NCBI GenBank assembly: GCA_022508345.1
Contig: JAFLVK010000002.1
Location: 151,510-215,509 of the forward strand
Source of the DNA: Clostridiales bacterium
GTDB lineage: Bacteria > Bacillota > Clostridia > Christensenellales > CAG-314
DNA: 64,000 nucleotides
Direction of reading: 5' to 3'
The notes beneath the pieces were generated by a model. It saw only the letters and a program-made list of their open reading frames with translations. It was not told the DNA's origin and searched no databases. A program made the translations under genes and the position numbers. Below are positions 7,965 through 59,399 of this stretch, in pieces; position 1 is the first letter of the stretch; every line of letters begins with the position of its first letter.

Positions 7965-8039
7965 TCCTCGTTAGCTCAGCGGCAGAGCATCCGGCTGTTA
8001 ACCGGAGGGTCGTTGGTTCAAACCCAACACGGGGAGCCA
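7965..8039 (+). tRNA. tRNA-Asn(GTT)
   Basis: Acceptor stem TCCTCGT/ACGGGGA; anticodon arm TCCGG-CTGTTAA-CCGGA; GGTTCAAA T-loop; encoded CCA. Confidence 0.97.
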
Positions 8040-30358: not shown

Positions 30359-30384
30359 AAAATATCCTGAAATTAAGATACTTC

Positions 30385-30509
30385 AATTCTTTTCTCATCC
30401 GGACTATACCGTCGGCTCGGGAATTTCACCCGATCGGCGCAACAAGTTTTTATGTTGCGTTCATAGGCTTTAACTATCGGTGTGGATTTGCACCACGCCC
30501 CAAAGAATT
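30385..30509 (-). ncRNA. FMN (RFN) riboswitch
   Basis: Minus strand GGGGCGTGGTGCAAATCCACACCG...GATCGGGTGAAATTCCCGAGCCGACGGTATAGTCCGGATGAGAAAAGAATT. Confidence 0.95.
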
Positions 30510-30565
30510 TATTTATTTGTGATTTAATTATACTACTGCTTTGTGATACTTGCAACTGTTTTGTA

Positions 30566-52409: not shown

Positions 52410-54233
<1,824 letters not shown>

Positions 54234-54448
54234 CCCGACCAAGCGCGCGTGGGCTCGGTTGACAGCGGCTCACGCCTTGCAACCTTGCACATTGTGTGCT
54301 ACGCACCCACGCGGTCGGACTACTTAGGAAGGACACTCTGTGTCCTTTTCATTTTACACTGCAGGGGGAGATGACCGCCGCTCTCCCCTCTGCACCCCCT
54401 CACGCAAGGAAAAAACCTCGGTACACGCCCGAGGTTTTTAACATATTT
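54234..54448 (+). repeat. Structured repeat family B copy 1 (starts at the typA stop)
   Basis: Homologous to the reverse complement of 57912-58109; 31-nt identical core; covarying stems. Confidence 0.8.
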
Positions 54449-54534
54449 TCGCATTTATGCGTTCAGTCCTGCTCCGCGTCCTTTCACGCGCTCAAATATG
54501 TTCATTAGTTTTAATAATCTACTACTTAAACACA

Positions 54535-57598: not shown

Positions 57599-57892
57599 TC
57601 ACAGTTGAATGTGTTCAATGCCCTCTTTGTCGCTACGCTTGTACACTACAAAGCGGTTGCCTATTGCCAGCACAGGCTCGCACTTCAGCAATTCGCACAC
57701 CTCAGCGCACATTGTCTTAGCAGTTAAATCGCAGCTTTTGAGCGCAGCCACCTTTACCAACTCGTGGTGGTAAAGCGCAACTTCAATTTCCTTTACAATA
57801 TTTTCCGTAAGCTCACCTTTGCCCACTATCACTGCGGGCTTCAAGGTATTAGCCAATGCCTTTAATTTACTTCTTTGTTTTGTCGTTATCAT
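57599..57892 (-). CDS. yhbY: RNA-binding protein YhbY (CRM)
   Basis: KQRSKLKALA..LKP..VGKG..HELVKV..IG..VYK. Confidence 0.92.
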   Translation of the reverse strand: MITTKQRSKLKALANTLKPAVIVGKGELTENIVKEIEVALYHHELVKVAALKSCDLTAKTMCAEVCELLKCEPVLAIGNRFVVYKRSDKEGIEHIQL

Positions 57893-57911
57893 AAATGTTT
57901 CCTTTGCTTTC

Positions 57912-58109
57912 AAATATGTTCCGAAAAACCACGGACCTGCGCCGAGGTTTTTCACCTTGCGGGGGATGCTGGGGCATGCGACTCCCCAGCTAAGTCAAAT
58001 CAGACAAGGATGCGGGAGCATCCTTCCACAGTAGTCCGACCGCGTGGGTGCGTAGCACACGCTAGTGCAAGGTCGCATAGTCGACCAAGTCCACGCGCGT
58101 TTGGTCGGG
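57912..58109 (-). repeat. Structured repeat family B copy 2 (starts at the obgE stop)
   Basis: Minus strand CCCGACCAAACGCGCGTGG...CCCACGCGGTCGGACTACT...AAAAACCTCGG..CCGTGGTTTTT. Confidence 0.8.
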
Positions 58110-59372
58110 TCAATCTACAAATTCAAATTCTATATCACCGACAATTACAGTGCTGCCGTCGTGCGCGCCACGTTTGCGAAGCTCGGCAATTACACCGCGC
58201 TCCTTCAACACGCGTTGGAAGTAACGGAAGCTGTCGTAGTCGTCTATGTTTACCTTGCGGGCAAGCATCGTTACCAATCCGCCCGTAACCTCGAATACGT
58301 CTTCTTCAAGCATATCAATTGCAAAGTCGTCCGTTTCCTCTTTTTGTAGCTTGACGGGGGTAAACTGCAACGGTTCAAGAGGTGGCAATGTTTCAAGCAG
58401 TTTCGCAACCGCTACAATAAGCTCGTCCACACCCTCGTGAATGATTGTCGTCATGGGAATGACCTGATACTTCTTGCCGTATTTTTTCTTGAAACGCTGC
58501 AAATTTTCCTCTGAAGAGGGCATGTCCATTTTGTTGGCGACAACAATCATGGGCAGCTCCTTGAGGCTATCGTCGTAGCTGTAAATTTCGTTGTTGATAA
58601 GTTCAAAGTCAGCTAATGGGTCGCGATCTTCACTACCGCTGATATCCAGCACATGCACCAGCAAACGCGTGCGCTCAATGTGGCGCAAAAAGCTGTGTCC
58701 CAAGCCTGCTCCCTCACTTGCGCCCTCAATAAGCCCGGGGATATCCGCCATGACAAATGTTGTGTCGTAGTACTTTACCACACCGAGATTGGGTGAAAGC
58801 GTTGTAAAGTGGTAATTGGCAATCTTGGGCTTGGCGTCGGACACAACGGACAGCAGCGTGCTTTTGCCAACATTGGGGAAGCCCACCAAGCCGACGTCTG
58901 CGATGGTTTTCAGTTCCAACGTAACTTCGTACTGCTCGGTCTTCACGCCATGCTCGGCAAACGCAGGGGATTGCCTCCTGGATGTTTTGAAGTGCCAGTT
59001 GCCTCTTCCGCCCTTACCGCCGGTGAGTATCACTTCGCGCTGTCCGTCCTCGAACATATCCGCAACAATATCTCCGTCGGCATTTTTGACAACGGTACCC
59101 ACAGGCACCTTGACAATGATGTCTGCGCCCTGCTTGCCGAAGGAGCGTTGTCTACCGCCGTTTTCGCCGTTGCCCGCGCGGAAATGCTTTTGGTAATGAA
59201 AGGCATTCAAGGTGTTTTCCGATGTGGTTGCAACAAATACAACGTCGCCACCTTTACCGCCGTCGCCACCGTCGGGTCCACCATTGGGAACGTATTTTTC
59301 CGTGTGCAGACTTGCCGAGCCGTTTCCGCCGTCGCCTGCCTTGATGTAAATTTTTACTTTGTCGATAAACAT
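58110..59372 (-). CDS. obgE: GTPase ObgE/CgtA
   Basis: GGPDGGDGG, GFPNVGKST, YHFTTL, DIPG and NKMD motifs; C-terminal OCT domain. Confidence 0.97.
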   Translation of the reverse strand: MFIDKVKIYIKAGDGGNGSASLHTEKYVPNGGPDGGDGGKGGDVVFVATTSENTLNAFHYQKHFRAGNGENGGRQRSFGKQGADIIVKVPVGTVVKNADGDIVADMFEDGQREVILTGGKGGRGNWHFKTSRRQSPAFAEHGVKTEQYEVTLELKTIADVGLVGFPNVGKSTLLSVVSDAKPKIANYHFTTLSPNLGVVKYYDTTFVMADIPGLIEGASEGAGLGHSFLRHIERTRLLVHVLDISGSEDRDPLADFELINNEIYSYDDSLKELPMIVVANKMDMPSSEENLQRFKKKYGKKYQVIPMTTIIHEGVDELIVAVAKLLETLPPLEPLQFTPVKLQKEETDDFAIDMLEEDVFEVTGGLVTMLARKVNIDDYDSFRYFQRVLKERGVIAELRKRGAHDGSTVIVGDIEFEFVD

Positions 59373-59399
59373 TGTGTAATTTTCCTTAAACAATTGTTG

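Follow-up and report, generated by a model that had tools for sequence, protein, structure and literature searches.

Small repeats at the ends of genes affect termination, the stability of the mRNA and even protein C-termini. Knowledge of such gene-end repeats comes almost entirely from the REP and BIME sequences of Proteobacteria and from a few Firmicute pathogens. The stalling of ribosomes by REPs that lie within 15 nt of stop codons is reportedly to be credited to Liang et al. 2015. The attC sites of integrons also reside directly behind ORFs in a fixed orientation; their outer stem is conserved, one strand has extrahelical bases, the inner stem keeps its pairing rather than its sequence, and the terminal structure varies widely in length.

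REP and BIME sequences are multi-copy, extragenic and hairpin-forming, occur as mosaics and tandem pairs, and are co-transcribed at gene ends, often no more than 15 nt from the stop codon, where they affect translation and mRNA decay (PMC12306157, PMC2817692, PMC3733652). A REP carries a GTAG or CGTC tag at one end (PMC3733652). Other mosaic small repeats of Firmicutes and enterobacteria include BOX, RUP and ERIC/IRU, as reviewed by Delihas (PMC2229807).

Here we describe an element that lies behind two genes of a 64-kb stretch of DNA (hereafter, the window) and that recurs across an uncultured genus of gut Clostridia. It resembles the REP/BIME (REPIN) sequences of Proteobacteria in being multi-copy, extragenic and built of hairpins, in forming mosaics and tandem pairs, and in being placed near stop codons. 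However, REPs are simple palindromes of 20-40 bp, whereas this unit is no such palindrome, has no GTAG or CGTC tag at its ends, and consists of a bracket helix of 70-160 nt, bulged by 6 nt and branched inside, together with 2-4 further hairpins. Also, REPs are accompanied by a RAYT (TnpA-REP), none of which was found in the genome containing the window or beside a copy, the P1 motif being missing from six transposase loci examined, and their hosts are Proteobacteria, whereas the host here is a genus of Clostridia.

With BOX, RUP and ERIC/IRU, the element shares exchangeable hairpin boxes, tens of copies, probably transcribed intergenic sites and a noncoding character, but it has no sequence or Rfam-level likeness to them and lacks terminal inverted repeats. 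To our knowledge, neither the bracket-helix architecture nor anchoring at stop codons occurs in those families. Judged by the features tested, the element behaves like the REP/BIME and mosaic repeats, yet it falls outside REP, MITE, attC and all Rfam families. The architecture in this uncultured genus of gut Clostridia is a different one: the foot and bulge of the bracket helix are fixed, its inner stem varies freely, and no transposase is known for it.

The copies behind typA and obg

The original prediction held that the same element begins, in the sense orientation, at the first position after the stop codons of typA and obg, and both junctions read in this way. The typA gene (bipA; 52410-54233, plus strand; Pfam GTP_EFTU and BipA_C) ends in TAA (54231..54233), which is directly followed by CCCGACCAAGCGCGCGTGG, and the outer helix of the element begins 1 nt downstream. 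The obg gene (58110-59393, minus strand; Pfam GTP1_OBG) ends in TGA (58110..58112), and CCCGACCAAACGCGCGTGG lies directly 3' of this stop on the minus strand.

The entire typA copy occupies approximately 269 nt (54234..54502, plus strand; nhmmer match C12:205744-206037) and consists of a P1 domain, H2, H3, a linker, H4 and H5, all on the plus strand. The P1 domain (54235..54318) is closed by an outer helix, CCGACC (54235-54240) with GGTCGG (54313-54318). Next come a bulge of 6 nt, AAGCGC (54241-54246), and an inner helix, GCGTGG (54247-54252) with CCACGC (54307-54312); two small hairpins lie within P1 (54257-54284 and 54287-54299). In H2 (54329..54347), which pairs AAGGACAC with GTGTCCTT, the purine-rich 5' strand GGAAG is kept, and the remaining stem covaries. 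H3 (54361-54393) is directly followed by the conserved C-rich linker ACCCCC..CGCAAGG (54394-54409), and the two together span 54361..54409. H4 (54411..54439) has the conserved loop GGTACACGCCC, A5 and T5 flanks and a score like that of an intrinsic terminator. The copy had been proposed to end at 54448, but a fifth hairpin, H5 (54440..54502, closing pair AACATATTT/AAATATGTT), is common to the copies behind ntpD and ypeB and extends it.

The obg copy (57912..58109, minus strand) contains the P1 domain, H2, H3, the linker, H4 and a short tail, lacks H5, and is followed by the start codon of yhbY (57890-57892, minus strand). Its P1 domain (58036..58108) reads CCGACC AAACGC GCGTGG ... CCACGC GGTCGG. 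Downstream on the same strand are H2 (58006..58025, AAGGATGC/GCATCCTT), H3 (57968-57990, GCTGGGG/CCCCAGC), the linker ATCCCCCGCAAGG (57955-57967; 57955..57990 with H3) and H4 (57924..57952), which pairs AAAAACCTCGG with CCGTGGTTTTT around the loop GGCGCAGGTCC. This H4 was not called by our terminator scan. It ends in a T-run, within the interval from the obg stop to the yhbY start (57890-58112, minus strand).

The predicted core of 31 nt, in which 54294-54324 equals the reverse complement of 58030-58060, is exact and is the longest word common to both copies. Both copies also contain the long stem that had been noted (CCGACC..GCGTGG / CCACGC GGTCGG) and three further hairpins whose stems have changed while remaining paired. 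The folds are more stable than those of shuffled sequences (z of -5.96 for the typA copy and -3.83 for the obg copy; 0 of 200 shuffles were as good). A small ORF of 70 codons lies within the typA copy (54296-54508), and copies vary by indels there. The sole Rfam matches within the 64-kb window are an FMN riboswitch (30383-30511, minus strand, 110.6 bits) and a tRNA gene (7965-8036, plus strand).

Structure and distribution of the family

BLAST and nhmmer searches of the draft genome containing the window (G000, 1.40 Mb) found five full copies, as well as variants and fragments. The full copies follow typA, obg, the genes for V-type ATPase subunit D (ntpD) and YpeB, and an unnamed ORF of 170 aa. 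All five start 0-3 nt past TAA or TGA on the sense strand, and a sixth, variant copy begins at the TAA of a 521-aa ORF. Therefore, the two copies originally seen are both real but are not a pair: the genome has at least five full copies, and the genus has approximately 180 matches to the covariance model described below. Modules have been exchanged within this genome, in that two types of H3 are swapped among copies, and two copies (those at ntpD and C1:42270) have an extra 45-nt hairpin in the P1 interior.

Smaller traces of the element were also observed. The last five codons (PTKRG) and the TGA of an L-serine dehydratase gene (G000 C1:282134-283339, minus strand) come from a 51-nt fragment of the 5' end of the element. 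A loose 12-mer scan of G000 for solo 5' stubs gave 33 matches, compared with approximately 43 expected by chance, so only the few with extended likeness were considered. One candidate stub (CCGACCAAACGTGC..), which may be a chance match to this loose 12-mer, lies in the spacer upstream of typA (approximately 52252 in the window; G000 C12:203761, plus strand).

In the family as a whole, the repeat unit is modular and 200-270 nt in length, and consists of the P1 bracket helix and two to four downstream hairpins. The P1 unit (70-160 nt) has a constant outer stem of 6 bp, CCGACC/GGTCGG, and a constant 6-nt bulge, A-(A/C)-ACGC, on the 5' strand only. Its inner stem, of 6-14 bp, is free in sequence, but its pairing is always kept: subfamilies have GCGTGG/CCACGC, GTGCGG/CCGCAC, GAGGTGG/CCACCTC, AAGTCGG/CCGACTT, AATGCGA/TCGCATT or an A/T-rich stem of 14 bp. 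The P1 interior is dispensable and expandable, with two small hairpins in most copies, unrelated sequence in variant copies, and short forms of the element measuring 67-71 nt. Two copies in another genome of the genus (G005; L021 and L023) have repeats nested inside the P1 interior (130-300 nt) and inside H3. The P1 insertion point in G005 is also the one that the extra 45-nt hairpin occupies in G000, at ntpD and C1:42270.

On the 3' side of the helix, a conserved ACU..GGAAG opens H2, whose stem covaries and whose conserved GGAAG strand resembles a Shine-Dalgarno sequence. H2 is followed by H3, by the C-rich linker, by H4, whose loop is of one of two conserved types, and in many copies by H5. 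The ends of the element, CCGACCA.. and ..GGTCGGACT, are found in 110 of 110 copies at most positions. The H4 of the typA copy fits an intrinsic terminator. However, a terminator-like site occurs up to 230 nt after H2 in 28 of 107 copies and coincides with H4 in 9, so H4 is probably not a general terminator.

To assess covariation in a larger alignment, a covariance model, R1, was built for the first domain and H2 from 15 copies, and 103 distinct copies were aligned to it. Standard pairs occupy 95.0% of the 2903 cells in this alignment, which is itself fitted to R1 and comprises related copies. Column shuffling gives 75.2% (0 of 500 shuffles are as high), and shifting the partners by 1-3 columns gives 26-44%. 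Changes on both sides were found for 26 of 32 pairs, including all 7 of the inner stem. The covariation is strong, in agreement with the original prediction, and despite these caveats the inner stems of the subfamilies, read directly in the sequences, leave no doubt as to the paired structure.

The molecule in which this pairing matters is less clear from the substitutions. G-U pairs (30 cells) are not in excess of A-C combinations (48 cells) among the 2903, and wobble pairs are therefore not favored on the sense strand; from these counts, the sense-strand RNA cannot be picked out as the molecule under selection. Copying through a DNA hairpin would fit the wobble data at least as well as would a slowly evolving RNA. 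Covariation of this strength implies that the structure is either under selection or faithfully copied.

R1 matches (E<=0.01) are present in 21 of 47 genomes of the genus, with 1-25 copies each; a further 17 genera of the family, represented by 35 genomes, have none. Plain BLAST was positive for 2 of 24 other genomes of the same genus and for none of 16 that represent other families in the order. A pattern scan for the helix foot across the GTDB collection, with one genome for each of 185,579 species, returned 67 stretches: 64 whose titles give uncultured Clostridia MAGs of gut origin, one labeled as a myxobacterium, and two chance matches within coding DNA of GC-rich genomes. The myxobacterium-labeled contig (L241) has an element that matches R1 and a flank that reads like that of a locus in the genus (L041), and is probably mis-binned.

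A scan of metagenomes for the element pattern gave 12 stretches, none positive for R1 at E<=0.01, and a scan for the 3' end of typA as a source of strain variants gave none. No public sequencing run was listed for the region. Three human-gut contigs share the architecture by eye. A human-gut subfamily (L251, L257, L260, L176 and L232) has the 14-bp A/T-rich inner stem, a different H2 and a degenerate 5' stub upstream; R1, run on the first three of these loci, misses them at this threshold and therefore undercounts the family.

Rfam 15 searched at gathering thresholds gave no match on the element in the window, and with E raised to 10 the best match was FsrA (E 0.014; 22.9 bits against a cut-off of 80). 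We therefore rejected a known RNA family, and novelty on that count stands. Carriage by phages or plasmids was also rejected, because neither collection has a blastn match to the element. In the literature on REP, BIME and small mobile sequences, we found no description of the family in the main texts, the scope of that search. The element thus appears to be an undescribed, genus-restricted, multi-copy repeat with a patchy distribution in uncultured gut Clostridia.

HDV-like and hatchet ribozymes cleave themselves at their 5' border. Given the sharp 5' border at the stop codon and the compact multi-helix fold, the element might likewise be a catalytic RNA that cuts at its own 5' border and frees a stable small RNA from the 3' UTR. 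Several features make this highly improbable. The searches with E up to 10 gave no Rfam ribozyme match. The P1 interior is dispensable and tolerates unrelated sequence, 130-300-nt insertions and reduction to the 67-71-nt forms. The one-sided bulge contributes the sole invariant unpaired bases, and the covariation is explained without a pseudoknot.

Placement at stop codons and history of the sites

The 5' contexts of 110 pooled copies (104 matches and 6 near-duplicates) were classified, and a copy was called stop-adjacent if no more than 12 nt separate its start from the stop of an ORF with 80 or more codons. By this definition, 43 copies are stop-adjacent. Directly upstream of the others lie a distinct hairpin module of approximately 85 nt (26 copies), a T-tract (8), a stub of the element's own 5' end (5) or a 13-nt GCTCGGGCATT motif (5), and 23 copies lie elsewhere, including beside divergent gene starts. 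By rough ORF heuristics, about one fourth to one third of copies genus-wide are not behind a co-oriented gene. The ~85-nt module (GGCTCTATGGCAAATGTTGGGG ... CCCCAACATT.TGCCAT.AGAGCC), which abuts the 5' end of P1, was observed in loci of G002, G009, G019, G020 and G054 (for example, L052, L064, L088 and L111); it is mostly behind T-tracts, and behind a stop codon in 4 of 30 cases.

The stop-adjacent share is 5/5 in G000, 11/12 in G005 and 8/11 in G017, or 24 of 28 copies together, whereas only 4.6% of the choices of intergenic position and strand in G000 fall 0-12 nt behind a sense stop. This enrichment is large even when the non-independence of copies is allowed for. For E. coli REPs, the share near stops is given as 11-52% (PMC12306157); the present element lies within three bases of the stop far more consistently. 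There is no conserved word or target sequence in the 5' flank, which has a weak preference for T (approximately 48% at positions -1 and -2).

Both hosts in the window are GTPase genes, and an association with GTPases had been raised. However, the 43 upstream ORFs match 69 Pfam families, in which Obg, prolyl-tRNA synthetase and DUF7934 each occur twice, and TypA, EF-Tu, DnaN, UvrC, thymidylate synthase, amylase and others once each. With Obg in 2 of 43 cases and otherwise unrelated hosts, we rejected a GTPase-specific element.

One explanation of the placement is that the element is an RNA of the 3' UTR that acts in cis, is dedicated to a role linked to translation termination, and is retained where it is useful. 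Starting under the terminating ribosome, the bracket helix would be melted in each round of termination, which would allow the RNA to sense or adjust how the preceding gene is translated (through stalling, tmRNA tagging or coupling to the next gene) or to set the half-life of the mRNA. The enrichment just described, the sense orientation of the stop-adjacent copies in the three genomes, and the conserved bulge and Shine-Dalgarno-like GGAAG strand all agree with such a role. So does the spacing, because the 5' end lies 0-3 nt from the stop even where 30-150 nt of free spacer is available on the 3' side. A precedent exists in E. coli, where REPs located up to 15 nt from a stop cause ribosome stalling and reduce expression (PMC12306157).

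Nevertheless, we consider a dedicated 3'-UTR RNA unlikely. Within the genus, 26 of the 47 genomes lack the element, no sister genus that was searched has it, its host genes are unrelated, and 67 of 110 copies are not stop-adjacent, some adjoining divergent gene starts or T-tracts. The P1 interior and the downstream modules are freely lost, swapped and invaded, and the wobble counts do not point to RNA.

The history of the two sites bears on this question in both directions. Of 30 typA loci fetched, 28 were read, and six of these 28 species have the element in some form after typA: full copies occur in G000, G008 (two in tandem) and G019, a mini copy in G020, and 15-nt 5' stubs in G009 and G054. 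In the closest relatives of G000, typA is instead followed by a plain terminator at +1 (G017), a terminator approximately 20 nt past the stop (G047) or, in G046, another motif; the G011 contig breaks off four bases beyond the stop. The element follows obg in three of 29 species (29 of 30 loci were read), at the stop in G000 and G017 and 82 nt downstream in G013. Only 8-30 nt separate the obg stop from the start of yhbY in roughly a dozen other species, so the element splits in G000 and G017 a gene pair that is tight elsewhere. The recurrence after typA (6/28) and obg (3/29) exceeds what chance insertion would give, and some copies may be old and retained, perhaps for a use. A look for empty sites in relatives had been proposed, but no empty and filled pair at typA or obg across the genus is close enough to fix the boundaries of insertion.

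In contrast to retention by site, likeness between copies follows the genome rather than the orthologous site, and this homogenization per genome argues against a dedicated 3'-UTR RNA. For example, the copy behind obg in G017 shares 92-96% identity with four further copies of that genome and 76% with the obg copy of G000, which suggests either within-genome homogenization or a site that was hit anew.

Possible routes of spread

Likeness within genomes could also be accounted for by recombination of DNA. The bracket helix might fold in single-stranded DNA as the substrate of a site-specific recombinase, comparable to attC or a CTX-type attP, and a unit of the form a-b-a', where a is the first 14-18 nt, might collapse to a solo a and re-enter any solo a, so homogenizing copies. 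The element resembles attC in its conserved outer stem, one-sided bulge, covarying inner stem, variable interior and orientation behind ORFs. The Watson-Crick-only covariation would also suit a DNA substrate.

Further evidence comes from terminal redundancy. A direct repeat of a copy's own first 12 nt is found downstream in 19 of 110 copies, compared with 2 of 110 for a reverse-complement control; 18 of these repeats lie at 200-315 nt, just past the last module, and one at 436 nt. In G009 and G054, solo stubs follow typA, a site at which other species carry full copies; with these stubs, the redundancy suggests a putative a-b-a' unit that might collapse to a solo a. However, tandem pairs of the element occur, and some of the 19 repeats merely begin a tandem copy, while others are 14-18-nt stubs.

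A recombination module of this kind nonetheless seems quite unlikely. No recombinase was linked to the element, and attC boxes (RYYYAAC / GTTRRRY) were not found, the outer stem in all copies being CCGACC/GGTCGG. The upstream genes are scattered core genes rather than cassettes in an array, and arrival at new gene ends would be left unexplained.

The reading that we favor, and regard as reasonably probable, is that of a non-autonomous modular repeat of the REP, BIME and mosaic kind, spread and homogenized within genomes and co-transcribed as part of 3' UTRs. This reading is favored by the genus-restricted and patchy distribution (21 of 47 genomes, 1-25 copies each), by mosaic modules and by within-genome likeness, and is supported in particular by module exchange, nested repeats, tandem pairs and the likeness of the G017 obg copy to its neighbors in that genome. 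As in REP and BIME families, there are many extragenic copies that form mosaics and tandem pairs near gene ends (1-25 per genome; 43 of 110 stop-adjacent). Of the two possibilities initially offered, a regulatory RNA or a mobile element targeting stop codons, the distribution thus favors a non-autonomous repeat at stops. The targeting part fared less well, given 67 of 110 copies that are not stop-adjacent and the lack of a conserved flank or target duplication; with 43 of 110 copies at stops, targeting is only a candidate property.

Other results count against the favored reading. Transposition is not demonstrated by the ends of the element: the features of MITEs are missing, because the 5' CCGACC.. 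has no inverted 3' partner that would make terminal inverted repeats, the flanks are not duplicated, and the T-only preference of the flank is weak. A mobilizer is also missing from our search. The Y1 transposase domain of IS200 and RAYT enzymes (PF01797) has no match in G000. It was found in 17 of 47 genomes of the genus, being missing from 10 of 21 that bear the element and found in 6 of 26 that are free of it, although absence from draft MAGs is not proof. At six transposase loci, the P1 motif was never adjacent (0/6). With this distribution and these loci, a link to RAYT or IS200 is unsupported. Finally, the spacing of 0-3 nt at typA, despite an intergenic gap of approximately 300 nt, is not explained by tolerance alone.

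We infer that a non-autonomous repeat of this type would multiply and homogenize within a genome through some enzyme or through recombination between copies, with the bracket helix as the likely recognition structure. Copies would persist mainly where they are tolerated and co-transcribed, on the sense strand directly behind a stop codon. As RNA, a very stable helix would then fall within the footprint of the terminating ribosome. Likely side effects include shielding of the mRNA 3' end and, in some copies such as that of typA, transcription termination; by analogy with E. coli REPs within 15 nt of stops, translation termination might be damped.

We also considered anchoring at stops as a mechanism rather than a by-product of tolerance. 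An excisable a-b-a' unit, possibly with a circular or more-than-unit-length intermediate, might be placed precisely where translation or transcription ends by a process that reads the end of a message, such as the terminating ribosome or the mRNA 3' end. The case for this proposal, which we regard as a long shot, rests on the presence in these genomes of two or more other repeat families, unrelated to this one, that also begin at stop codons. One G000 family, starting with GCTCGGG(C/T)ATT, has 4 of 8 copies located 1-2 nt behind stops of ORFs of 251-652 codons (C1:539899-, C1:302203-, C1:87497- and C12:325864-, outside the window). In G046, the closest relative, this motif was observed right after the typA and obg stops (L117 and L148), where G000 has the P1 element. 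If true, mechanistic anchoring at stops would be a form of mobile-element targeting not described in bacteria.

For annotation, our results imply that such elements are not to be taken for gene-specific regulators. For the genomes of this genus, the elements break both operons, such as obg-yhbY, and assemblies. The element also offers a clean natural test of the effect that a stable helix has when it lies under a terminating ribosome, and may provide a lead to a putative hairpin-recognizing enzyme.
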